DNA of 64,000 bases from Candidatus Izemoplasma sp. (GCA_029939945.1 JAOZRX010000001.1:43384-107383), one strand, 5' to 3'. Positions 29,753-43,262 are shown, counted from the stretch's first letter. Translations and numbers: made by a program. Notes: generated from the sequence alone by a model not told the origin.

Positions 29753-29817
29753 AAATCTTAAATAAATCTTAACTCAATCCTCAACCCTTTGACCTCATTC
29801 GAATATCAAGGTAGTAT
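29753..29817 (+). promoter_or_regulatory. tandem 11-bp direct repeat (candidate OmpR-type regulator site) plus promoter, site a
   Basis: AAATCTTAAAT AAATCTTAACT, 14 bp, TTGACC, 17 bp, TAGTAT. Confidence 0.65.
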
Positions 29818-29947
29818 ACTCGTGAAAGAAAAATAAACGCCAAAATTGGAGTGATCCAGTGACGGAAAACTAAAGGGTCTCAAGAAGATAGCCAGTTGCC
29901 TTTCTAGGTAACTTTTTTGTTACGAAAAATTAAAGGAGGATCTTATA

Positions 29948-30430
29948 ATGATCAGAAAATTATCAATTTTGTTAGTAGTATTAGCAGCATTTGGAGGGAC
30001 AGTATCTGCATATTCATGGTGGGATACATTACAAGTTACACAAAGTGAAACATTAACAATTGGAGAAGGAACAGATTTAGTATTGGCAGTTAACGCAACT
30101 GCACCTGCAGGAAAAGTATTAGTACCAGATGGTGTTGTTTTAGGAGTTAATGATGTAGACGAAATCGTCTTAAGTTATGATGTTAACTTAAGTAAAGAAG
30201 CTCAAAGTGATTTAGAACTTAATACAAGCGTATCTAATTTATTAATTGACGGAGACGATACTTACATTTCATATGTAGTTATCGATGTTACACCATCAAC
30301 TGTAGATATTAACGATGATACAATAACTGTAACAGTAACAGTTACACTTACTGAACCACTAACTGAAGTTATTTATAACGCTGTAGTTAATGGAGACATC
30401 ACATTTGATTTAACATTTAACGCTTCATAA
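29948..30430 (+). CDS. secreted acidic protein with SipW-cognate-type signal peptide (paralog family member 1)
   Basis: N-terminal LLVVLAAFGGTVSAYSWWD, then ETLTIGEG...GKVLVP...ITFDLTFNAS, collinear with the 33189, 39026 and 40766 proteins. AAAGGAGG RBS. Confidence 0.7.
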   Translation: MIRKLSILLVVLAAFGGTVSAYSWWDTLQVTQSETLTIGEGTDLVLAVNATAPAGKVLVPDGVVLGVNDVDEIVLSYDVNLSKEAQSDLELNTSVSNLLIDGDDTYISYVVIDVTPSTVDINDDTITVTVTVTLTEPLTEVIYNAVVNGDITFDLTFNAS

Positions 30431-30461
30431 TTAAAGAAAAATAACATAAGGAGGTGGCAAT

Positions 30462-31313
30462 ATGAAAAAATTATTAATTATATTATTAGTTACAACTATC
30501 ATAATTTCAAATAGTGCCATTTCCAAAGGTTATGGCTTCTTTGATACAAAAACCGATACAGCTAATGAACTATTAGATATCGGTTTTTGGGATTTTATAC
30601 CATTACCAATCGGGCCTGATTTCGCTAGTAAATTATCCATATATGTTGATGATGCTATAGCAGAAGACCCCGATTCGAAATTGAAATACATCTATTCACA
30701 AACAGATGTACCAAATAATAAAACAGCTAAAATAAATGAAATAGATGTTTTTGGATATACATGGAAATTTGAGGGAAAAGGTAAAACTACCAATTATCCT
30801 ACTATGGGATATCCTGTATTGATTGATAGAGCATTAGATGAATTTGGAAATCCAGTTCACGATATAGCTCCAGCATATTCAACTACACCACTATATCCAG
30901 AATACAACTATTTTACAGCTTATGATGCAATGAATCTTCACACTAATAATCAATATAGTCTTAGATTAAATTATATGGATTACTTAAGTACAACAACATC
31001 TATTGGAAAAGTATCAAACATATCTTTTTATGCAAACATTGGACTAAGTGACCCTGATGATGCAGAAAGTATAAGAAGAGCAAGATTTTATGTTTTTGTA
31101 TCAGACCGTAATGGAGGTTGGACACGTATAGGTAATGTAAGAAGCACATTAGTAGCTTCTGAAAGTGAGTACTTCACTCATCACTCATTTGATGTCCCAG
31201 GAAACTTGTTAGGTGAAGAACTATTCGTTAAAATTGCATTTTATGGGCAAACGTACTCTGCTGGATTTAGTAGGTTGATTATAGATGATCTTATAATCAC
31301 AATGGTAGATTAG
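30462..31313 (+). CDS. secreted protein with SipW-cognate-type signal peptide (distinct family, accessory-like)
   Basis: N-terminal hydrophobic segment followed by SKGYGFFDTKTD, resembling the GTxAxF(S/T)D class of signal. 283 aa with no other motif. Confidence 0.6.
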   Translation: MKKLLIILLVTTIIISNSAISKGYGFFDTKTDTANELLDIGFWDFIPLPIGPDFASKLSIYVDDAIAEDPDSKLKYIYSQTDVPNNKTAKINEIDVFGYTWKFEGKGKTTNYPTMGYPVLIDRALDEFGNPVHDIAPAYSTTPLYPEYNYFTAYDAMNLHTNNQYSLRLNYMDYLSTTTSIGKVSNISFYANIGLSDPDDAESIRRARFYVFVSDRNGGWTRIGNVRSTLVASESEYFTHHSFDVPGNLLGEELFVKIAFYGQTYSAGFSRLIIDDLIITMVD

Positions 31314-31321
31314 GTGATATT

Positions 31322-31894
31322 ATGAAAAAAAATAGATATAAAAAAGAAATTATTGATACAATTAAATTTATATTATTACTTATTGTTATAGTTGTAGTAT
31401 TCAAACTTGTTTTCACCTATGTTCCACCACTTAATAAATACGACCTATATGTTATTAAAACTGACTCTATGGATCCAATTATTCTGCCTGGGGATATTGT
31501 TGTAATTAAAGAAATAGATTCAGGTGATATTAAAGTCGGAGATATAATGGCGTTTCATGTGGATATTAATGGTGATAATGTAGATGATGTTGTAGTACAT
31601 TATATTGCTGAAATAAATTCAAATAATAATGAATTAATCTTTAAAACAAAACCACATGTTAGTGAATTACACGATAGATGGACAATTGAAGAACAAGATT
31701 TAATCGGAATATATACATATCAAGTAAATTATCTAGGTAAAATTATCATGTTTGCACAATCATGGGTAGGAAAAATCATACTTGTGGCAGATGTAATAAT
31801 CATTTCAGTTATTTACGATGTATTATTTAGTAAGAAGAAGAAAACAAAAATCAAGGGAAAAAAGGATGATATAGAAAACATCTCTGTTAAATAG
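31322..31894 (+). CDS. sipW: archaeal/ER-type signal peptidase I (S26B, SipW-like), copy 1
   Basis: N-terminal TM, catalytic-Ser box KTDSMDP, GDIVVIKE, GDIMAF, His box VVHYI, plus a C-terminal TM and basic tail. Terminator at 31877-31906. Confidence 0.75.
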   Translation: MKKNRYKKEIIDTIKFILLLIVIVVVFKLVFTYVPPLNKYDLYVIKTDSMDPIILPGDIVVIKEIDSGDIKVGDIMAFHVDINGDNVDDVVVHYIAEINSNNNELIFKTKPHVSELHDRWTIEEQDLIGIYTYQVNYLGKIIMFAQSWVGKIILVADVIIISVIYDVLFSKKKKTKIKGKKDDIENISVK

Positions 31895-32399
31895 AGATGT
31901 TTTTTTGAATTGTCTGCTACATAGTGAACACTCCCACTACTTACAATAGACATTGTTGAAGTAGGGGCTTCTCGGGTAGTGCGCACTACCATGCGCAAAT
32001 TAATCGAGCTATCAAGGTTGTCCCATCCTCTTATACTAGTATTGCTTAGTTTTCTATTTTACTCCTTTTAATATATTTATCTAGATTTATTATAACAATT
32101 GCTTATTGAAAGGACAAAATGCAGAAAACGCATTTTTTTATAATAAAACTTAATTTTTGAACCAGAAATTACATCTGTTCATCTCACCAGTTACGATATT
32201 ATCAATTAAAAAATGAAGTCACAAGACTTCATTTATTTTAAATTCATTTTATTCTCCTTATATTTACATTTGTTTTTTGCTTTTCTATTTTATATAATCG
32301 TATAGTATCATCCTTGAGATTTTCATTCAATATACAGAGAATCGAGTTAATATTAATGTAAAAATTACATGAAAAGATAATGTTAAATATATATGTTAT

Positions 32400-32463
32400 A
32401 AATCTTACATTAATATTAATTTGAATAGACAGTAATTGACTATTGAAGACGAAATGGTAATAT
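32400..32463 (+). promoter_or_regulatory. direct-repeat site plus promoter, site b (upstream of pilin-like gene)
   Basis: AAATCTTACAT TAATATTAATT, 14 bp, TTGACT, 16 bp, TAATAT. Confidence 0.55.
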
Positions 32464-32530
32464 TAGTATGAAATCGGAAATGAATTGATTTATAGAAAAG
32501 GTTTCTTACATAGCAATTGGAGGTGTAAAT

Positions 32531-32965
32531 ATGATAAAAGGAAATAAAGGTGTTACACTAGTAGAATTATTAATTGTAATAGTAGTAATGGGAATCATAG
32601 CTACATTCTCAATTGTATCTGTTAGGAAAATTATTGAAAATACAAAAAAAGATCGTGTTTATGCAGATGCTTTAATGGTTGCTGAGGCAGTAACATTATA
32701 TTGTATAAGTGATGGATGTGAACCAAAAGAGGGTGCTACTAATACCCATGTTAAGTGGAAACACATAAAGATGTATATAGATGGGATTGATGAGGAATAC
32801 TATAATTTACCAGATGGATTTTTAGTTTCGATAGTTCAAGCAGGAGAAATAGAAAGTCCTAGAGTTAGATTAAGAGCAATAGACCCAACAGATTATTCAT
32901 GGTATATATTTAGAGATCCGAGTGATCCAGATAATGATAGAGATAATGTAACTACTCGAGAGTAA
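32531..32965 (+). CDS. type IV pilin / pseudopilin-like protein (prepilin-type N-terminal cleavage/methylation signal)
   Basis: MIKGNKG|VTLVELLIVIVVMGIIA has a Gly at -1, Glu at +5 and a hydrophobic helix. 144 aa. Terminator at 32997-33029. Confidence 0.8.
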   Translation: MIKGNKGVTLVELLIVIVVMGIIATFSIVSVRKIIENTKKDRVYADALMVAEAVTLYCISDGCEPKEGATNTHVKWKHIKMYIDGIDEEYYNLPDGFLVSIVQAGEIESPRVRLRAIDPTDYSWYIFRDPSDPDNDRDNVTTRE

Positions 32966-33091
32966 TAATAGTAGATAACAAAAAAATATGAAAAAGAATA
33001 CTAGATATTAGATTATCTAGTATTTTTTATAGATATTAGATAATCTAATGGATAATTACTAAGAATTTGAATTTAGAGAGTTTTAGATTTG

Positions 33092-33156
33092 AAATCTTAA
33101 ATAAATCTTACAGTCACTCCTTTGTAATTGTTTTTTTTGATAAGCTACCATACAAT
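33092..33156 (+). promoter_or_regulatory. direct-repeat site plus promoter, site c
   Basis: AAATCTTAAAT AAATCTTACAG, 14 bp, TTGTTT, 17 bp, TACAAT. An inverted degenerate half-site TTAGATTT abuts at 33083-33090. Confidence 0.6.
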
Positions 33157-33188
33157 AAAATTATAATAAGCAAAAGGAGGGTATCCAA

Positions 33189-34196
33189 ATGAAGAATAAA
33201 CCTTATAAAATTCATCGAAAAATAGTTGGTTATTTATTAGTGTTATCATTAATTCTCACAACCGGTACTTTTGCTTATTGGGCAAATTATGTAGAGGGAA
33301 CAAATAATGAAATAACTGAAACATTAACTGTTGGGTCTGCGAAAAGCGTTAAATCAAGATTTGATATCGCAAATGAATTACATAGCGGAGGAAGACTTGT
33401 ACCTAGTAATCAAGTTGAAAATAGTGAAGCAAATGCAGTTGCAAAAATAGATTTAGCATACAATATTGCCTGGTTAGAAGATTCAAATGTAACACAATTA
33501 AATGGAACTTCAACTATGGGCTTAATAGGTATATCTCATAGTCTTATTATTGTAGTGAATGGTGAAGAATTAGACTCAAGTGTATATCCAAAAATATTTG
33601 AATTAATTAATGTAAATTATGATGTAAATAATAAAACTCAATTAGTATTTAAAGGAGAATCTGAAACATTCTTCTTTAGTGTAACAATGGATGAACCTGA
33701 AAATCAAAGAGAGTATTTACTTATTAGAAATGCTAGTATAACTATAGAATTCACTTTTAGTATCCATGATAGTTTAATCGAAACAACTAATAATACTGAT
33801 GATGATTTAGAACCTGCTTCTCCATATGGAGATACATTATCTGAGATAGCACCTAGTATTATTAATGATATGCAAGAGAAACTATCTTCAACAGGATCAT
33901 ATGGTAGATCTTGGGGGAAATACAGATATACAGATTTAGGATTAGACCCTGAAAACTGGGATGAAGCAATTATGCATATTCATTATAAGCCTTCTGGAAG
34001 CAGCTTGTTTTTACGCCCTGAAGACGGATATGGATTCACAGTATATAATTTTGATAACGATGAGTTCTCATTAGATTCAACATATAATTGGAATTTGATT
34101 TATAGTGATATAGATGGGAATTGGTATTTCCATAGTATTACAGAATCAAATATAATTGATATAAATACTCTCGTAGTTGAAAGTATTACGGATTAG
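33189..34196 (+). CDS. secreted acidic protein with SipW-cognate-type signal (paralog family member 2, with about 135-aa C-terminal extension)
   Basis: LILTTGTFAYWANYVEGTNNE, then ETLTVGS...GGRLVP...VTMDEPENQREY...ITIEFTFSI. Terminator at 34245-34290. Confidence 0.7.
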   Translation: MKNKPYKIHRKIVGYLLVLSLILTTGTFAYWANYVEGTNNEITETLTVGSAKSVKSRFDIANELHSGGRLVPSNQVENSEANAVAKIDLAYNIAWLEDSNVTQLNGTSTMGLIGISHSLIIVVNGEELDSSVYPKIFELINVNYDVNNKTQLVFKGESETFFFSVTMDEPENQREYLLIRNASITIEFTFSIHDSLIETTNNTDDDLEPASPYGDTLSEIAPSIINDMQEKLSSTGSYGRSWGKYRYTDLGLDPENWDEAIMHIHYKPSGSSLFLRPEDGYGFTVYNFDNDEFSLDSTYNWNLIYSDIDGNWYFHSITESNIIDINTLVVESITD

Positions 34197-34427
34197 TATA
34201 TGAGTACAAAGATACTTTTGCACATAAGAAATTAGAATATTTAAAAAACAGACTATAATAGAATTTGATTTGTATAGTCTGTTTTATTTTTATTGAGTAA
34301 TTTAATATTAAACATAAATTATCTAAAGTTATAAAGAAGTAAGTTATTAAATATGAAAATGTGTTACAATTATTTTATAATATAATAGATATGTATATAA
34401 GCATATAAGTTTATTTGGAGGTGCTTT

Positions 34428-37400
34428 ATGAAAAAGAAATTGTCTCTAAAAGAGATCTTAGTGTACGGGAGTTTAATGTTCATATTTGTGTTTGCTATTG
34501 TTTTTTTGGTTACTTTAGAAGAAGAAACAGTAGGAATAGAATACTTTCATGTATATCAATCAAATTATGATGATCCAATTGAGATAAAAATCGGGGTACT
34601 AGCAAATCAAGGCACTGTTGCTGCACATAATCGCTGGGATGAAACTGCAGAATACTTGAATAATAAAATTGTTGATCATACATTTGTAATTGTACCGTTA
34701 TCATTTGATGATGTTAGTCAAAAGGTGGTAAGTGAAGAAGTTGATTTTGTGTTGGTTAACTCATCTTTTTATATTGACTTAAATGTAAATATTGGTGTTA
34801 CAAGTATTGTTACAATGAATAATCTAAATCTAGATGTTGAATTAACTTCTTTCGGAGGAGTGGTTTTTACAAGAAGTGATAATGATGATATAAGTGACTT
34901 CTCTGATATTAGGAATAAAGACTTTGCTGCGGTAGATGAAAATTCATTTGGTGGATGGCAGACTGCCTTAAAAGAATTTATAGATCATGATATTGATCCT
35001 TTTTCTGATTTTAAAAGTGTTACATTTATCGGAACTCAAAATGAAGTTGTATTAGACGTAATAAATGGAACTTACGATGCAGGTACCATTCGAACAGGTA
35101 TTATAGAAGAAATGATTGAAGATGGTTTAATCAACTCAAATGAGATAAAAGTAATTCATGAGGAAACCCCGGATTTTCCTGTCTTGATTTCTACTCAATT
35201 ATATCCTGAGTGGCCCCTTGCAAAAACAGCGCATATATCAAATGATTTAGCAAATCAGGTTGCAGATGCTTTAATTCATATGAGTAGAACTGATCAAGCA
35301 GCCATTGATAGTGGTATTGCAGGTTGGACAATTCCTCAAAATTATCAAGACGTACGTCAAACACTAAAACTTATTAAAGCTTCACCATATGAAGATTATG
35401 GTTCAGTGTCATTTAATAATTCGTTGTATTATAGTCGTGTTTTCTTAATCATTATTTTATGGGCCTTGTTAATAATTGTATCAATTGTTTTTTGGTTAGT
35501 TCACACTCGTGAAAAAATGGTTTATTTAACAAAAAGATCAAAAGTAATGGAAAAAATAGCAGTCGAGGCAAATGAGGCTAAAGGTGAATTTTTAGCCAAT
35601 ATGTCTCATGAAATCCGAACACCTATGACTGCTATAATTGGATTGTCTACGCTGTTAGATAGTACTGAATTATCTATTAGACAACGTGATTATAATCATA
35701 AACTAAAAAGTTCAGCAGTTAACTTGCTAGGGATAATTGAGAACATTTTAGACTATTCAAAAATTGATGCAAAAAAAATGAAAGTTGAAAAAATAGAATT
35801 TGAACTAAATGATGTTCTATATAATCTTTCAAATGTAGTAACACTGAAGGCAATGGAAAAAAATATTGAATTCTTATTTAGTATTCAATCAAAGTTACCT
35901 AAAAAGTTTATTGGAGATCAACTAAGGATAGGTCAAGTTTTAATTAATTTGGTTACAAATGCAATTAAGTTTACTGATAAGGGACAAGTTGTCTTAGAAA
36001 TAAATACAGAACTTAAAAATAATAAACCATATTTATCATTTGCTGTAAAAGATTCAGGCATTGGAATGACTACGAAGCAAATAAATGAAATATTAAATCC
36101 ATTTACTCAAGCTGACAGTTCATTTACTAGAAAATATGGTGGAACAGGACTTGGATTAACAATAACTAATCAATTGATAAGATTAATGGGAGGAGAATTA
36201 TACATTTCAAGTGTAGAAGGAGTGGGAAGTACTTTTGCATTCTCAATACCATTAAAACCAGTTGATGAGGATAATGATTCATTTGTTATTCCAGAAAAAC
36301 TATTAAATCTTAATGTGATGATAGTTGATGATAATGAAACCTCATTAAATATATTAGAAGAAATATGTGTTTCCCTAGGATTTAATACAAAGATAGTATT
36401 ATCACCTTTTGAAGCTATAAAAATACTAGAACAAAAGGAATTTATTCCTGATATTATAGTTCTTGATTATGTAATGCCAGAATTAAATGGTATTGAATTA
36501 GCAATAAAATTAAGAGAGAAAGAATTATTAACAGATACACAATCATTATTGATGGTGTCAGCATTTGGTAAAGAAAGTGTTATTAACGATGCTATGGATG
36601 CAGGTATTTCTGAATTTCTTGATAAACCAATTAATCCATCGTTTTTCTATAATACAATACTGAGTTTGTTTGATGAAACAGAATTCAAGAAAAGCAGTAG
36701 ACATGAAAATAGAAAAAAAGTAAATTTAGTAAAACCAGGAACAAATATTATTCTTGCAGAAGACAATAAAATAAATCAACAAATCGTTTATGAATTGTTA
36801 TCAAGAGAAGGTTTTGACGTAACGATTGCAAATGATGGTGTTGAAGTAATTGATTTACTCGAGGCAGATGAGTTTGATTATCAACTAATACTAATGGATA
36901 TTCAAATGCCTAATTTAAATGGTAGAGATGCTACAATAAAAATTCGTGAAACTGAAAGTAAATATCAAAATATACCAATTGTTGCAATGACAGCACATGC
37001 TTTAGAAATTGAACGTAAAAAGTCTCTTCAGGCAGGAATGAATGATTTCTTAACTAAACCTCTTGAGATACCAAAATTATTTAATGCATTATCAAAATAT
37101 ATTGATATTGTTTCTGTAGCAATAGATAATAAAAAATCTGGCACAGTAAATCTAGACTTTTTAGATACAAAAGAGGGATTAAAAAACCTTTCAGGTGATG
37201 AAGCATTCTATATTGAAATATTATATAATTTCTTAACTGATTATAAGGGTTATGACAAAGTACTAGAAAATTTATTTGGTGATGAAGATGAAGAAGATAT
37301 AATCATAGAATGTCATACAATAAAAGGATTGGCTGCTACTATAGGTGCAAAAGAACTGCAAAAAAATGCGGAAAACTTAGAAAGTAACTTAAGAGAAGGC

Positions 37401-37508
37401 AATTTTGATTATGGTAGCTTTTCTAAATTCGTTGAATCGTTGAAAGAATTAAATAAAAAGTTGGATAGTTATTTCAATGATAACCCTTTTAAACGAATTA
37501 AACGCTAA
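34428..37508 (+). CDS. hybrid sensor histidine kinase (extracytoplasmic PhnD/SBP-like domain, HisKA-HATPase, two receivers, HPt)
   Basis: Two TM helices bracket about 310 aa with [10 protein letters not shown]...[11 protein letters not shown]-box SHEIRTPM, N-box [10 protein letters not shown]-boxes DSGIGM and GGTGLGL. Receivers carry VLDYVMP and LMDIQMP. HPt motif is [12 protein letters not shown]. Confidence 0.9.
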
Positions 37509-37537
37509 ACTATTATCACAGATATGGAGATGTTGAT

Positions 37538-38305
37538 ATGGATGTCAAAAATAGATTAAAGAAAAACAAGAGGAAAATCTTGCTAGTAGAAGACAATCAC
37601 TTAAATATCCGAATCATGAGTAGATTATTACAAGGCATGGGTGTGGATATTGTAGAAGCAAGTAGTAAGAAAGAAGCAATAAAAATAGCTGTAGAAGAAA
37701 ACTTTTCAATGATCTTTATATGTATTTTCATGCCGGAAACTATTGGATATGAAATCATAAAGAAAATACGCGAACTAAGCGAAATAAATAAAGATACACC
37801 AATCATCGCAGTATCATCTAGCAGTTACAATTCTATGACAAATAAAATGATGGAATGGGGTATTGAGGATGTCATTTCAAAACCATTAAAGGAAAGTGAA
37901 TTGCTAATTTTGTTTAAGAAGTATACAGTTGAGAAAATTCTATCTAAGCCACAAACAACTATGAACTTTAGTATGTTTGATAATAAAGAATTTGAGTCTT
38001 TTTATAATGATGATAGTCTTCAAAAAGAAATAATCTTAACATTTATTAATGAAAGAGATAATGATTTAGATAGAATGAATGAAGCCTTTCATTCTAAAAA
38101 TATTGATAAAATATATGAAGCTCTGCATTATATGAAAGGTTCATTTTCATATTTAAAAGCAAAAAAGATTTTGGAACTTACTCAGCAAATATTAGATTTA
38201 CTAAAAGTTAAAAATTTAAAAGATGCATTACTTCTTGAGAGAACATTTTATAACAACTATAATACATTATTTAAAGAGTTAAATTTCTATATTAATAGTT
38301 TGTGA
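37538..38305 (+). CDS. receiver-like domain (Asp to Cys at acceptor position) fused to HPt domain
   Basis: LLVEDN ... MIFICIFMPETIGYE aligns with the DxxMP acceptor segment, with Cys (TGT 37721-37723) in place of Asp. Conserved IAVSS and SKPL are retained. The C-terminal HPt motif is HYMKGSFSYL. Confidence 0.75.
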   Translation: MDVKNRLKKNKRKILLVEDNHLNIRIMSRLLQGMGVDIVEASSKKEAIKIAVEENFSMIFICIFMPETIGYEIIKKIRELSEINKDTPIIAVSSSSYNSMTNKMMEWGIEDVISKPLKESELLILFKKYTVEKILSKPQTTMNFSMFDNKEFESFYNDDSLQKEIILTFINERDNDLDRMNEAFHSKNIDKIYEALHYMKGSFSYLKAKKILELTQQILDLLKVKNLKDALLLERTFYNNYNTLFKELNFYINSL

Positions 38306-38338
38306 AAATTGATGATATTTAGAAAGAAGGTATAGAAT

Positions 38339-38878
38339 ATGAGTGCTATAAAAAATATTATGTATTATATTCTTGTAATATTTTTAGTTATATATGTATC
38401 TATACTGGCATTTAGTCCTGATAGAATGATTGAATTTATTGGATTCAGAGCATTTATTGTTCTTTCTAATTCAATGGAACCCACTATAAATATTGAGGAC
38501 ATGGTAATCTGTAAAAGAGTAGATGAAGAAGATTTAGATATTGGAGATGTTATAACATTTAATGTCTATATTCCTGAAATGGATTCCTTAGTTTACGTTA
38601 CTCATTACATCGGAAATATAGAAGAAAGTGATGGAGTGAAAATATATTACACAAGAGGGGAACAACAAGCAGAAAATACATATGACGAGTGGAAAGATAA
38701 AGATGGAAACCCTGTAGATATCACATTTGATGATATTGAAGGAAAATATTTTTTCAAAATCCCATATATTGGACATGTAAAAAACGCTTTAACAGAACCA
38801 GTAATACTTACTTTAGTGATATTAAATGGTGGTGTTATATATATATTAGTTAAATATATACGTCGTAAAGGTAAATAA
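38339..38878 (+). CDS. sipW: archaeal/ER-type signal peptidase I (SipW-like), copy 2
   Basis: N-terminal TM, SNSMEP, GDVITF, VTHYI, C-terminal TM and RRKGK tail. Terminator at 38893-38925. Confidence 0.75.
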   Translation: MSAIKNIMYYILVIFLVIYVSILAFSPDRMIEFIGFRAFIVLSNSMEPTINIEDMVICKRVDEEDLDIGDVITFNVYIPEMDSLVYVTHYIGNIEESDGVKIYYTRGEQQAENTYDEWKDKDGNPVDITFDDIEGKYFFKIPYIGHVKNALTEPVILTLVILNGGVIYILVKYIRRKGK

Positions 38879-38925
38879 TGTAAAACTAGGTAAAAAGGAT
38901 CAGAATAATTTCTGATCCTTTTTTG

Positions 38926-38989
38926 AAATCTTACATAATTATTAACTATTTAACAAATTACTTGTCAAAAAAACTTAACTTAATACAAT
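38926..38989 (+). promoter_or_regulatory. direct-repeat site plus promoter, site d
   Basis: AAATCTTACAT AATTATTAACT, 14 bp, TTGTCA, 16 bp, TACAAT. Confidence 0.55.
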
Positions 38990-39025
38990 AGAGGTATCAA
39001 AACGAATTTGAAAGTTGGGTTATTT

Positions 39026-39640
39026 ATGAAAAAAGTTAAGGAGAAAAAGCAATACAAGTTTCTATCAATAAGATTTATTGTTAAAATCTTGTTGATAGTA
39101 TCGTTCATTATGACATCTAATACATTTGCATACTGGGCAGATACGGTTGTAGGAACTAATACATCTATCACAACCACTTTTTCAGTAGGCTCTCCTTCAT
39201 TTGTTAATCATGAATTTGTACTAACGGATGAAATAAATACCTTTAGCTATGTAATCCCACTAGAAGAATTATTAAGTGATCCAGATAATAGTATCGATGA
39301 TGTAATATTTGGAATTATTTGGAATGACGAGGAATTATTAGAAGAACTTCAAAATCTTGATGCTTCAGCAGAAGTCGAAGTAACTTACGATATCTTAATT
39401 ACTGAAAATGGTAAAGAAGTAAAAAAATGGAGATATAAAAGACTTGTTAAATTAATTAATTTAGAGTTAGATGAAGATAATCCTAATACAATTAGTTATG
39501 GTAATACACCAGAAACATTTGGATTTAGTGTTTCATTAAACGAAGAGCAAAGAAAAAATGATTATAGACTTTTAGCAAAACATGAAGTTACTATCGTAGT
39601 TAGTTATACAATAATAGAGGATACTATTGTTAGTGATTAA
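39026..39640 (+). CDS. secreted protein with SipW-cognate-type signal (paralog family member 3)
   Basis: FIMTSNTFAYWADTVVGTNTS, then TTFSVGS...VSLNEEQRKNDY...VTIVVSYTI. I prefer ATG 39026 over the listed TTG 39008. Terminator at 39680-39736. Confidence 0.65.
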   Translation: MKKVKEKKQYKFLSIRFIVKILLIVSFIMTSNTFAYWADTVVGTNTSITTTFSVGSPSFVNHEFVLTDEINTFSYVIPLEELLSDPDNSIDDVIFGIIWNDEELLEELQNLDASAEVEVTYDILITENGKEVKKWRYKRLVKLINLELDEDNPNTISYGNTPETFGFSVSLNEEQRKNDYRLLAKHEVTIVVSYTIIEDTIVSD

Positions 39641-39820
39641 TCTATTTCAATAAACTGAATAAGATGATAAAGTAAAAATAACTGCACCTAATACTTGGAC
39701 ATAGCCAACTATGACAAATTAGGATGCAGTTTTTATATGTGATATCTTCTTGTAGAATATTCCCTATTTTGATATAATATGTTTGTTAGGATTTTATTTC
39801 ATAACTAGGGAGGGCATAGT

Positions 39821-40537
39821 ATGAAACGTATTCTTCTAGTAGAAGATAATAAGGTAGTATGTAAGACAATTGAAAGGCATCTAGTTAATAATGGATATAA
39901 GGTCGATTGTGTGTTTAATGCAGAAGATGGATTACTTGAAGTGAATAAGCATCAATACACAGCTATAGTACTAGATTTAAACTTACCAAAAATGAGTGGT
40001 TATGCTTTCATACAAATTTTGCGTAAGAAATCAGATATTCCAGTTATTATTAATACTGCGCATGCTAGTGTAAAATCAAGGGTTAAACTTATTAATGTTG
40101 GAGCTAGTGATTTTATAGAAAAATCGATGCATCCAGATGAAATTATAGAAAGCATCAAAATTATTTTAGAAGATCGAGATGAAATGAAAAATAAGAATAA
40201 GACATTTAAGTATAAAGATATTGTAATAGACTTTTCAACGAGAACAGTAAAGAAAAATGGAAAAGTATTAGAACTTACCTCAAAAGAGATTGATATATTA
40301 AAGACTTTACTTGATAATCCTAATAGAGCATTTTCAAGAGAACAATTATATTTAGTTGTATGGGGTGAACATTATTCTGAATCTGTTGATAATACAATTA
40401 ATGTACATATTAAGAGATTAAGAAATAAAATTGAGGAAACACCAAAAAAACCTGAAATTATTGAAACGGTATACGCTTATGGATATCGTTTAGGTAAATC
40501 AGTTGTTGATATGCTTCAACAAAGAATGGAACAATAA
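39821..40537 (+). CDS. OmpR/PhoB-family response regulator
   Basis: Receiver with LLVEDN, IVLDLNLP and a conserved Lys. The winged-helix output has LTSKEIDILKTL...VHIKRLRNKIE...YGYRL. Own promoter TTGTAG-17-TATAAT. Confidence 0.9.
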   Translation: MKRILLVEDNKVVCKTIERHLVNNGYKVDCVFNAEDGLLEVNKHQYTAIVLDLNLPKMSGYAFIQILRKKSDIPVIINTAHASVKSRVKLINVGASDFIEKSMHPDEIIESIKIILEDRDEMKNKNKTFKYKDIVIDFSTRTVKKNGKVLELTSKEIDILKTLLDNPNRAFSREQLYLVVWGEHYSESVDNTINVHIKRLRNKIEETPKKPEIIETVYAYGYRLGKSVVDMLQQRMEQ

Positions 40538-40630
40538 ACAAAGAGTGAATCGAATGATTCACTTTTTTTATGTCGAAATACAAATTTAATAAACGGCTAA
40601 AACAAGAGGAAAAACAATATCTAACATACT

Positions 40631-40695
40631 AAATCTTAATTAAATCTTAACTAGATACTGCATCCATTGACTAAGAATACTATGGATGATACTAT
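40631..40695 (+). promoter_or_regulatory. direct-repeat site plus promoter, site e
   Basis: AAATCTTAATT AAATCTTAACT, 14 bp, TTGACT (40667-72, which is the listed TTG start), 17 bp, TACTAT. Confidence 0.65.
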
Positions 40696-40765
40696 ACGAT
40701 TATACAAAGGAAAAAAAGCAAGAAAAACTATAAAAACTAAAAAAGAAAATATAAGGAGAAAAACA

Positions 40766-41374
40766 ATGAAAAAAGAACAAAATAAAAATTCAAGAAAAAA
40801 GGTAATCGCTATATTAGTAATGTTATCACTAGTATTAACAACAGGAACATTCGCATATTGGGCAAGTTACGTTGAAGGAACTGATGCAGAAGTAACAGAA
40901 ACTTTAGTAGTAGGTTCAGGAGACACAATCGAAACAACATTTGATATATCAGATGATAATACTATAGGTGGATTATTAGTGCCAGTTGGACAAGCAGTTA
41001 ATTCAAGTTTATATGCAATTGAAGAAATCAATTTATCATTTGATGTACAATGGTACGAAGATGAAGACCAAACTCAAACTTACGGTATAGATTCAATTGG
41101 ACAAATCGTTATTGATCATGAATTATTAATCGTAATTGATGGAGAAGAATTAGATCATGATGACTATTCAGATATTTATGACTTAGTAAACGTATTATAT
41201 AGTGAAGACAATGCAACAGATATGTATTTAGATAATACAGATTCATTCTCATTCCAAATTACAATGGATGAACCAGCTAATCAAGAAGAATATAATTTAA
41301 TCGCATTCGCAGAAATTTCAGTAACATTCTCATTCACAATTGACACAGATGATATTGAAAGTACTGATTATTAA
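40766..41374 (+). CDS. secreted acidic protein with SipW-cognate-type signal (paralog family member 4)
   Basis: ATG 40766 with an AAGGAG RBS. LVLTTGTFAYWASYVEGTDAE, then ETLVVGS...GGLLVP...ITMDEPANQEEY...VTFSFTI. 3' hairpin at 41418-41452. Confidence 0.75.
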   Translation: MKKEQNKNSRKKVIAILVMLSLVLTTGTFAYWASYVEGTDAEVTETLVVGSGDTIETTFDISDDNTIGGLLVPVGQAVNSSLYAIEEINLSFDVQWYEDEDQTQTYGIDSIGQIVIDHELLIVIDGEELDHDDYSDIYDLVNVLYSEDNATDMYLDNTDSFSFQITMDEPANQEEYNLIAFAEISVTFSFTIDTDDIESTDY

Positions 41375-41500
41375 TAATATTAATAACAGTAATAATGTTC
41401 ATATCCACCCTTTTAATAGAGAAGAATTATACTTATCGTATAATTCTTCTCTTATATATTATAGTAAAGAACTAACATTTTTTTGTTATTCACAGAAATT

Positions 41501-41564
41501 GAATCTTAAATAATAATTAACTCAATTATCATTTATTGACTGTGATAATTATCAATGATATTAT
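41501..41564 (+). promoter_or_regulatory. direct-repeat site plus promoter, site f (upstream of sipW-like copy 3)
   Basis: GAATCTTAAAT AATAATTAACT, 13 bp, TTGACT, 17 bp, TATTAT. Confidence 0.5.
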
Positions 41565-41613
41565 ACAAGGGAGAAGAAAAGACTAGGATATTGATTAAAG
41601 GAGATGGTGAATT

Positions 41614-42213
41614 ATGAAGAATGTAATTGACAACATTAAATTAGGATTATATATGGGAATAATTGGAATAATCTTACTATACATTGGTACTTTGATATTT
41701 ATGCCAGACTTAACGGTAAAAATATTTCGTTTTAAACCTTTTGTAGTTGTAACAGAATCAATGGAACCTTACATTAATGTTAATGATATGGTAGTTGTTG
41801 GTGTTTTCGATATTGATGAAGCAGAAGTTGGAGATATTATCACATTCGAAGCTGATATAGATTATAATGGAACAAAAGAAATTGTGACACATTATATTTA
41901 TGAAATCGATAGAACTAGAGATGAAGCAGTTATTCGAACAAATAGATATTTTGATGAAGATCAAACGATAACTCCAGATACATGGATAATCCCAGAAAAT
42001 AATGTTATTGGATCATATAGTTTTCATATTCCATACATGGGATATCTAGTAGGATTTATAAAGAGTATTTACGGAATCATTATAATTGGAATTAATGTTC
42101 TCATATTTGGGGGAATAAAATATATTAATAGAAAAACTAAACAAAAAGAATTGTTAGAAAAAGAGAATAAAAAAGAAGAAGAATTAGAAGAGGAAATTAA
42201 ACAATTAGATTAG
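41614..42213 (+). CDS. sipW: archaeal/ER-type signal peptidase I (SipW-like), copy 3
   Basis: N-terminal TM, TESMEP, GDIITF, VTHYI, C-terminal TM and a long K/E-rich tail. Confidence 0.75.
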   Translation: MKNVIDNIKLGLYMGIIGIILLYIGTLIFMPDLTVKIFRFKPFVVVTESMEPYINVNDMVVVGVFDIDEAEVGDIITFEADIDYNGTKEIVTHYIYEIDRTRDEAVIRTNRYFDEDQTITPDTWIIPENNVIGSYSFHIPYMGYLVGFIKSIYGIIIIGINVLIFGGIKYINRKTKQKELLEKENKKEEELEEEIKQLD

Positions 42214-42324
42214 TAAAATTAATGTACTTATATAAGAGTGAATCGAATGATTCACTCTTTTTTATGTCGAAACATCAATTTAACAAATGGCTAAAATAAG
42301 AGGAAAAACAATATCTAACATACT

Positions 42325-42389
42325 AAATCTTAATTAAATCTTAACTAGATACTGCATCCATTGACTAAGAATACTATGGATGATACTAT
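42325..42389 (+). promoter_or_regulatory. direct-repeat site plus promoter, site g (copy of site e)
   Basis: Identical sequence to site e. Confidence 0.65.
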
Positions 42390-42459
42390 ACGATTATACA
42401 AAGGAAAAAAAGCAAGAAAAACTATAAAAACTAAAAAAGAAAATATAAGGAGAAAAACA

Positions 42460-43068
42460 ATGAAAAAAGAACAAAATAAAAATTCAAGAAAAAAGGTAAT
42501 CGCTATATTAGTAATGTTATCACTAGTATTAACAACAGGAACATTCGCATATTGGGCAAGTTACGTTGAAGGAACTGATGCAGAAGTAACAGAAACTTTA
42601 GTAGTAGGTTCAGGAGACACAATCGAAACAACATTTGATATATCAGATGATAATACTATAGGTGGATTATTAGTGCCAGTTGGACAAGCAGTTAATTCAA
42701 GTTTATATGCAATTGAAGAAATCAATTTATCATTTGATGTACAATGGTACGAAGATGAAGACCAAACTCAAACTTACGGTATAGATTCAATTGGACAAAT
42801 CGTTATTGATCATGAATTATTAATCGTAATTGATGGAGAAGAATTAGATCATGATGACTATTCAGATATTTATGACTTAGTAAACGTATTATATAGTGAA
42901 GACAATGCAACAGATATGTATTTAGATAATACAGATTCATTCTCATTCCAAATTACAATGGATGAACCAGCTAATCAAGAAGAATATAATTTAATCGCAT
43001 TCGCAGAAATTTCAGTAACATTTTCATTCACAATCGACACAGACGATATTGAAAGTACTGATTATTAA
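42460..43068 (+). CDS. secreted acidic protein, identical at protein level to the 40766 product (paralog family member 5)
   Basis: The ORF-track translations of the two copies are identical. I saw only synonymous nucleotide differences, for example ATTGACACAGATGAT versus ATCGACACAGACGAT. Confidence 0.75.
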   Translation: MKKEQNKNSRKKVIAILVMLSLVLTTGTFAYWASYVEGTDAEVTETLVVGSGDTIETTFDISDDNTIGGLLVPVGQAVNSSLYAIEEINLSFDVQWYEDEDQTQTYGIDSIGQIVIDHELLIVIDGEELDHDDYSDIYDLVNVLYSEDNATDMYLDNTDSFSFQITMDEPANQEEYNLIAFAEISVTFSFTIDTDDIESTDY

Positions 43069-43262
43069 TAATAGTAATAATAGTAATAATAGTAATAATG
43101 TTCATACCCCCCCTTCTAAGAGAGAAGAATTATACTTAGCGTATAATTCTTCTCTTATATATTGGAGTAAAAAAAATAGAAATTATCTTTACAATCAGTA
43201 TATACTGTCATCAAAATTGGGAATTAAAATAGAAAAAAAACAACTTCAAATCAAAGTTGTTT

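Follow-up and report, generated by a model that had tools for sequence, protein, structure and literature searches.

A tandem 11-bp direct repeat as the probable operator of an OmpR/PhoB-family regulator in a SipW-type signal peptidase locus of Candidatus Izemoplasma

The 64,000-nucleotide stretch of Candidatus Izemoplasma DNA analyzed here (JAOZRX010000001.1:43384-107383; "the window" below means this whole 64-kb stretch, with a GC content of 29.7%) contains, between 29.7 and 43.2 kb, a locus encoding five secreted proteins that are not assigned to any Pfam family (subA to subE, the last in two copies), three SipW-type signal peptidases, a prepilin-motif protein, a hybrid kinase, a REC-Hpt protein, and an OmpR-family regulator. 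We find that promoters dispersed over this locus share a tandem 11-bp direct repeat at a fixed distance from the -35 box. This repeat is likely to be the operator of the OmpR/PhoB-family regulator encoded at position 39821, which would act as an upstream activator of the predicted fibre units. A first-pass annotation of the sequence had proposed such a shared cis-regulatory signature of the locus's own regulator, and the proposal is supported by a phylogenetic footprint, by co-occurrence with orthologues of the regulator, by a metagenome scan, and by the position of a cyclic di-GMP (c-di-GMP) riboswitch. We infer the identity of the binding protein, activation as opposed to repression, and the order of the phosphorelay from the sequence.

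All seven positions listed in the annotation (29753, 32400, 33092, 38926, 40631, 41501, and 42325) carry the repeat as described. The first 11-mer reads (A/G)AATCTTA(A/C)NT, as AAATCTTAMNT at six sites and GAATCTTAAAT at 41501, and is directly adjoined by a more degenerate second 11-mer, which is AAATCTTAACT, TAATATTAATT, AAATCTTACAG, AATTATTAACT, or AATAATTAACT. The 22-bp consensus is AAAT(C/A)TTAA(A/C)T AAAT(C/A)TTAACT with the core (C/A)TTAA-N6-(C/A)TTAA present at all sites, and the two 11-mers are direct, not inverted, and in tandem at all sites of the window and of the relatives. The described spacing of 14 bp (13 bp at 41501), TTGNNN, 16 to 17 bp, and TANNAT also holds. The count needs adjusting in both directions: all seven sites are real, but only six are independent, since 40631 and 42325 lie in a tandem duplication (40564-40863 equals 42258-42557, 98% identical), and an eighth, likewise complete, site was overlooked on the minus strand (32366-32345).

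The motif is strongly overrepresented where it is coupled to a promoter. The window contains 11 copies of RAATCTTAMNT where 3.4 are expected, with 10 of the copies in the locus and all of these on the plus strand, while the composite AATCTTAMNT-N5-TTA-N16/17-TTG is found 7 times against 0.01 expected, a number reached by no shuffle. When a 20-position consensus was scored over both strands, every position reaching at least 18 was one of the seven sites, and the only other positions reaching 17 (9842 on the minus strand and 55246 on the plus strand) were devoid of the -35/-10 geometry. A generic sigma-70 consensus scan gave 118 matches against 105 expected and was rejected as a signal, being uninformative alone in DNA with 30% GC. 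The hexamers alone are not enriched, and the signal therefore lies in the repeat and its fixed spacing.

The annotation had placed the repeat against the -35 box in the classic geometry of the family, and this part is refuted, as a nonconserved 14-bp gap separates the repeat from an intact -35 box. The repeat ends 14 bp before TTGNNN and 37 to 38 bp before the -10 box. If the -10 box is placed at -12 to -7 and the spacer is taken as 17 bp, the repeat is predicted to lie at about -71 to -50, with its center near -61, and the gap to cover -49 to -36, a class-I-like position upstream of an ordinary -35 box. Of the approximately 30 sites that were not selected by the metagenome DNA pattern, all but two (41501 and that of the relative locus L006) have a 14-bp gap, and all of these sites have the same orientation relative to transcription, co-oriented with the gene. 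The repeat cores carry 1 to 1.9 bits of information, and the gap, spacer, and upstream flank around 0 to 0.4 bits. Positions T4, TTAA, T11, and the C of TTAACT are invariant, while neighboring A/T-rich bases vary freely. The TTG was considered as a third half-site and rejected, since TTGAC is shifted by 2 bp against the 11-bp register. We also observed a loosely conserved stretch, AC-N3-T(G/A)TA(A/C), 1 to 10 nt after the -10 box and around the predicted start (e.g., 29818-29827 and 40696-40705; TAGTAT ACAGTTACAA and TAATAT ACGATTGTAA are examples), which recurs in many paralogous and orthologous motif promoters at only 0.2 to 0.8 bits.

Relatives were retrieved by protein homology: 22 subE homologues were aligned, and the alignment was used to fetch 14 loci from species-representative genomes without using any DNA motif. 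The DNA scanned comprised the 64 kb of this genome and approximately 20 kb around each relative's locus. In eight of eight Izemoplasmatales loci (L001-L008, 50 to 62% amino acid identity), the subE orthologue is preceded by the repeat, 14 bp, a -35 box, approximately 17 bp, and a -10 box. The -35 box begins with TTG in seven of these and reads TAGACA in L006; in L003, the whole promoter reads AAATATTAAAT AAATATTAACT, 14 bp, TTGACG, 17 bp, TAATAT. The same architecture stands before sipW3 (L002 and L003), and the motif precedes the subD orthologues in L001, L002, L017, L060, and L066. Gene order is conserved as kinase, REC-Hpt, subD, regulator, subE, sipW3. When the regions upstream of 13 subE genes were aligned with MAFFT, with the start codon instead of the motif as the anchor, mean identity was 45% and 16 columns were invariant: 10 in the 22-bp repeat, 2 in the -35 box, 3 in the -10 box, and a last one in the gap, immediately upstream of the -35 box. 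The repeat is a phylogenetic footprint and does not reflect common descent of entire promoters.

In GCA_002919055.1 (L066, 1.95 Mb), sites in the main locus precede the kinase gene, subD, subE, and sipW3, and a second, identical copy of subE with its own motif promoter lies some 1.27 Mb away, surrounded by housekeeping genes (L065 9855-10615; L066). A distant subE copy with a motif promoter is what a trans-acting regulator would predict. The annotation had called the motif locus specific; in view of this relative's orphan promoter, it is better termed system specific.

Full motif promoters precede kinase genes in three relatives' loci, namely, the main kinase gene in L066 (3640) and L049 (566, minus strand) and a second kinase-like gene in L001 (4898), which suggests positive feedback there; the kinase gene of the window is without it. 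As the annotation had noted, no motif is present upstream of the kinase or the regulator gene in the window, where scores peak at 15/20 and 14/20 and promoter geometry is lacking. Separate promoters without the motif serve the kinase unit and the regulator, that of the regulator being TTGTAG-17-TATAAT just upstream of 39821, behind a hairpin that lies between subD and the regulator gene. Autoregulation by read-through in the window was considered and is not supported, given that no site precedes either gene and that the hairpin and separate promoter intervene.

Some variants of the site were seen in the relatives. A third half-site copy occurs inside the 14-bp gap in L047 (973, minus strand) and L054 (737), and a third, upstream copy occurs in L003 (2373) and L001. 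Between the regulator gene and subE, L001 also carries an inverted tandem site that scores a perfect 20/20 and is not accompanied by a promoter; the L001 positions are 9837 and 9732 (minus strand). In L062 (51-1477), a motif promoter stands before a gene for a 440-amino-acid protein with a prepilin N terminus followed by many acidic repeats of the GDGNDTV type.

A metagenome collection of 241 million records was scanned with AAATMTTAMNT-NNN-TMTTAACT-N14-TTG. Among the 53 matches on 50 contigs, 18 have a TANNNT box 17 bp after TTG, and all 18 are located upstream of homologues of subA, subE, sipW3, the pilin-like gene, or the kinase gene or, where the contig ends, of the riboswitch. An orthologue of the regulator (70 to 90% identical) is adjacent to these matches on every contig that is long enough. 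The remaining 35 matches are on unrelated contigs and have no -10 box. Promoter-like copies were thus found only before homologues of the cluster genes, and the motif is specific enough to serve as a search key, as the DNA pattern alone retrieves members of this system from metagenomes.

Further support for the promoter predictions comes from the leader of the first unit, riboswitch-subA-subB-sipW1, which is headed by promoter 1. The leader contains a class I c-di-GMP aptamer (Rfam RF01051, 54.2 bits versus a gathering threshold of 35) whose 3' strand is common to the terminator. Because the ligand-free minimum-energy fold uses this strand to form the terminator, we infer an ON switch, in which c-di-GMP would allow passage of the terminator. 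The aptamer starts 12 nt after the predicted -10 box, which gives independent support for the predicted transcription start, and the distance from the first base of the repeat is 76 to 78 nt in the window, L023/L031, L044, L046, and L048. The arrangement of promoter and riboswitch is kept in L023/L031, L046, and L048, and in L044 it stands before a pilin-like gene. Riboswitches before subA homologues are found also in L009, L011, and L012, which are three of the six Acholeplasmataceae and Erysipelotrichaceae loci (L009-L014) in which subunits and sipW are kept. The riboswitch layer is probably older than the repeat, because these distant relatives keep the riboswitch without the two-component genes or the motif. 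An extension of the motif beyond Izemoplasmatales was considered and rejected, as L011 has a weak match with a 17-bp gap and no match was found in L012 or L009.

The protein encoded at 39821 is, as annotated, an OmpR/PhoB-family regulator (PF00072, E = 9.5e-25; PF00486, E = 5.9e-26), and many NCBIfam family models match it, all below their equivalog cutoffs. Across 12 orthologues (59 to 90% identical), the stretches VEDN, LD, NT, and DFIEK are invariant, which we take to be the receiver's acidic pocket, its phospho-acceptor Asp, and the Thr and Lys conserved in the family. Invariant too is the recognition helix, DNTINVHxKRLRNKIE, in keeping with the conservation of the half-site. The OmpR/PhoB family binds tandem direct repeats with an 11-bp period. 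The orthologue is present within the locus wherever the contig suffices (L001-L005, L017, L023/31, L034, L041, L044, L048, L060, and L066), and a Pfam search of the locus proteins revealed no other DNA-binding protein.

The link between this protein and the site is indirect, and only a fraction of any genome is visible, so the repeat could be a real operator of a different transcription factor encoded elsewhere, with the 39821 regulator controlling something else; L023/L031 has a second, unrelated two-component pair adjoining the locus. We regard this as unlikely in view of the presence of the orthologue on every sufficiently long contig, the invariant recognition helix, the match between the repeat and the format bound by the family, and the lack of any other DNA-binding protein encoded in the locus. 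It is similarly improbable that the regulator binds the repeat as a repressor or dual regulator, acting, for instance, through oligomerization or occlusion of an upstream element. The fairly strong -35 and -10 boxes make basal activity without an activator plausible, but a site near -61 is clear of both boxes and poorly placed for steric repression, its orientation relative to transcription is constant, and BsaR/BsaS, functionally the nearest analogue, regulates positively (PMC7395162). A protein-independent element, either phased A/T tracts giving curved DNA or a UP-like element, would agree with an A/T-rich repeat phased at one helical turn upstream of promoters. We consider this very unlikely, as specific positions of the repeat are invariant while adjacent A/T-rich bases vary, the nonconserved gap occupies -49 to -36, where UP elements sit, while the repeat lies at -71 to -50, and the repeat is confined to one gene system and is not found at strong promoters generally. 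That the similarity is a functionless by-product of gene and promoter duplication within the locus, as the duplicated sites 40631 and 42325 and the -10 box and leader common to 40631 and the minus-strand site at 32366 might suggest, is hardly credible, since the six independent promoters are alike only in the repeat and the -35 and -10 boxes and differ in gaps, spacers, and flanks, and since the same pattern in orthologues at 50 to 60% protein identity, and the footprint, already contradict it.

If the repeat is the operator of the 39821 regulator, the hybrid kinase encoded at 34428 would phosphorylate the regulator via its own REC and Hpt domains and perhaps via the REC-Hpt protein encoded at 37538. 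The regulator would bind head to tail as a dimer, with one monomer per 11-bp half-site, at around -71 to -50 and 14 bp upstream of an ordinary sigma-A -35 box. Class-I-like activation would then follow at separately terminated units, namely, subA-subB-sipW1, the pilin-like gene, subC, subD, subE (two copies), and sipW3, and the first unit would additionally need c-di-GMP to pass the riboswitch-controlled terminator. Some observations weigh against this reading. The -35 boxes are already near consensus (mostly TTGACx), so an activator may not be strictly required at these promoters. The DNA-binding domain of the regulator is not specially close to that of SaeR, discussed below, and the match in site format is an analogy only. 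L009-L014 have neither the two-component genes nor the motif, so the motif is not essential to the fibre system as such. Finally, the scan covered 64 kb and the relative loci of about 20 kb, and further regulon members or regulators are possible elsewhere.

The closest match in site format is the SaeR site of Staphylococcus aureus, GTTAAN6GTTAA, in which TTAA is essential and the G is dispensable (PMC5083920). SaeR sites are located upstream of the target promoters, and the regulator genes have a separate constitutive promoter (PMC5083920). Both systems thus have direct xTTAA repeats with 6-bp spacing and an 11-bp period and a regulator with its own promoter. However, the half-site here is longer (with flanking AAAT and a trailing T), each promoter has one site at a single fixed distance, and the 39821 protein and SaeR are not orthologues. 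The DNA-binding domain of the 39821 protein is of a generic kind within the family, and MtrA, RstA, WalR, CovR, and OmpR outrank SaeR among its PDB matches, the SaeR domain ranking about 23rd (E = 2.7e-11). The PhoB pho box and the CiaR box are likewise tandem direct repeats with an 11-bp period bound by OmpR-family dimers, and the CiaR half-site also holds TTAA. The CiaR box, NTTAAG-N5-TTTAAG, is located 10 bp upstream of the -10 box and replaces the -35 box (class II), and recognition-helix conservation was used in the CiaR work to argue for conserved specificity (PMC3091779). In contrast to the pho and CiaR boxes, which take the place of the -35 box, the repeat here lies 14 bp upstream of an intact one, and the half-site on the same strand is CTTAA and not TTAAG.

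The nearest functional precedent is the sipW-bsaABCRSD operon of Clostridium perfringens, whose expression requires BsaR/BsaS, with BsaR binding PsipW (PMC7395162), and which interacts with type IV pilins (PMC7395162 and PMC11580942). A SipW-type peptidase, secreted subunits, and an in-locus two-component system are common to both systems, as is a functional link to type IV pilins. The C. perfringens system has one promoter and one operon, whereas here there are at least six separate site-bearing promoters, a hybrid-kinase phosphorelay, an added c-di-GMP riboswitch, and a wall-less host, and the subunits have no detectable sequence similarity to TasA or BsaA. Class I c-di-GMP riboswitches are known to control adhesin and pilus genes in Firmicutes, such as Clostridioides difficile and the Bacillus cereus group (PMC6200980 and PMC11218506). 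The riboswitch here resembles them: its class I aptamer is part of a surface-structure operon leader, and a terminator serves as the expression platform. It differs in being in series with a promoter predicted to depend on a response regulator and in preceding an uncharacterized, SipW-dependent subunit family.

The coordinates of the locus features are collected in Table 1.

Table 1. Promoters, genes, and RNA elements of the locus, in window coordinates
Feature	Coordinates	Strand	Description
Promoter 1	29753..29817	+	Repeat 29753-29774 (AAATCTTAAAT AAATCTTAACT), -35 TTGACC 29789-29794, -10 TAGTAT 29812-29817
c-di-GMP-I aptamer and overlapping terminator	29829..29913	+	Aptamer 29829-29903, terminator 29894-29913; leader of promoter 1
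subA	29948-30430	+	Open reading frame
subB	30462-31313	+	Open reading frame
sipW1	31322-31894	+	SipW-type (archaeal-type) signal peptidase I, TIGR02228 above cutoff
Eighth site	32302..32366	-	Repeat 32366-32345 (AATTTTTACAT TAATATTAACT), -35 TTGAAT 32330-32325, -10 TACTAT 32307-32302
Pilin-like gene promoter	32400..32463	+	Repeat 32400-32421, -35 TTGACT 32436-32441, -10 TAATAT 32458-32463
Pilin-like gene	32531..32965	+	Prepilin-type N-terminal methylation motif, PF07963 and TIGR02532
subC promoter	33092..33156	+	Repeat 33092-33113, -35 TTGTTT 33128-33133, -10 TACAAT 33151-33156
subC	33189..34196	+	335 amino acids, paralogue of subE, 46% identical
Hybrid histidine kinase	34428-37508	+	Pfam: PhnD-like sensor, HisKA, HATPase, 2 REC, Hpt; no motif
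REC-Hpt protein	37538-38305	+	Pfam; signalling unit without motif (34428..38878)
sipW2	38339-38878	+	TIGR02228 above cutoff
subD promoter	38926..38989	+	Repeat 38926-38947, -35 TTGTCA 38962-38967, -10 TACAAT 38984-38989, 16-bp spacer
subD	39026..39640	+	Open reading frame
Response regulator	39821..40537	+	OmpR/PhoB family, REC and Trans_reg_C
subE promoter	40631..40695	+	Repeat 40631-40652, -35 TTGACT 40667-40672, -10 TACTAT 40690-40695
subE	40766..41374	+	202 amino acids from ATG at 40766
sipW3 promoter	41501..41564	+	Repeat 41501-41522, 13-bp gap, -35 TTGACT 41536-41541, -10 TATTAT 41559-41564
sipW3	41614..42213	+	Assigned by homology
Promoter of duplicated subE copy	42325..42389	+	Identical to 40631-40695; gene 42460-43068

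The motif had been described as preceding every subunit gene, the pilin-like gene, and sipW3, which is correct for subA, subC, subD, subE, the pilin-like gene, and sipW3 but not for subB. Neither subB nor sipW1 has a site of its own, both being downstream of subA in the same transcription unit; sipW2 follows the kinase genes. Terminator-like hairpins are located just upstream of the sites at 29753, 38926, 40631, 41501, and 42325, and the motif promoters therefore head separate transcription units. The duplication that contains sites 40631 and 42325 comprises the whole subE unit with promoter, gene, and downstream sequence (40564-41471 and 42258-43174, 89 to 98% identical at an offset of 1,694 to 1,703 bp), and its two copies flank sipW3.

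The eighth site, with a 14-bp gap and a 17-bp spacer, is divergent from the pilin promoter. Downstream of it, there are only a ribosome-binding site, a four-codon open reading frame (MNLK, 32247-32233), and a bidirectional terminator (32234-32211). Promoter 40631 has exactly the same -10 box and leader (ggatgaTACTATacgattata), and the eighth site is probably a relic, inverted copy of the subE promoter, although it may instead produce a tiny regulated transcript. The inverted half-site TTAGATTT that the annotation had pointed out at 33083-33090 is present and makes AGATTT-G-AAATCT together with the first repeat; no subC promoters for comparison were found in the relatives. Also on the minus strand, at 31880-32117, a locally G+C-rich stretch, roughly 200 nt long, extends from a TG-extended promoter-like sequence (TTGTCC-17-TATAAT) to the bidirectional terminator of sipW1. 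A small RNA candidate here (32082-31880) was rejected on a fold z-score of -1.16 and on its lack of conservation in any fetched locus, and the stretch had no Rfam, tRNA, or tmRNA match.

The proteins sipW1 and sipW2 scored 66 and 71 bits, respectively, against the TIGR02228 cutoff of 51.85, while the Bacillus SipW equivalog model gave scores below its cutoff on the sipW proteins. The subunits had no match in Pfam even at an E value of ≤10, where only noise was seen, a PDB profile search with a subunit was empty, and hhalign of a subunit against TasA (an approximate sequence) gave a probability of 0.1. An AlphaFold2 model of subE from the 22-sequence alignment was poor (pLDDT [predicted local distance difference test] of 58.7), and Foldseek with this poor model found nothing in the PDB at an E value of ≤0.001. 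Some subunit homologues carry JGI labels that mention a SipW-like signal peptide. We considered calling the subunits TasA-like, but the name is not used, as the Pfam, PDB profile, hhalign, and structure searches gave no similarity. Homologues of the subunit genes are labelled Izimaplasma, Izemoplasmatales, Xianfuyuplasma, or "Tenericutes," and the host is, judging from its sequence, a free-living, wall-less marine bacterium of the Izemoplasmatales, a relative of the Bacilli.

The principle at work, an OmpR-family regulator with a tandem direct repeat and a local regulon, is a textbook one. The organized fibre system is undescribed in the literature searched, which made no mention of SipW together with Izemoplasma, Acholeplasma, or Tenericutes. 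Our reading specifies one regulator, one 22-bp operator, at least six target promoters with predicted starts, and a c-di-GMP checkpoint. In its broadest form, which we put forward tentatively, wall-less Izemoplasmatales may build a multisubunit, SipW-dependent surface fibre from subunit families without recognizable relatives, with the dispersed units switched together by one phosphorelay-driven regulator at a fixed upstream site and the founding operon AND-gated with c-di-GMP. The riboswitch layer would then be the older one, shared with Acholeplasmataceae, and the two-component and repeat layer would have been added in Izemoplasmatales, spreading with the duplicated subunit genes.

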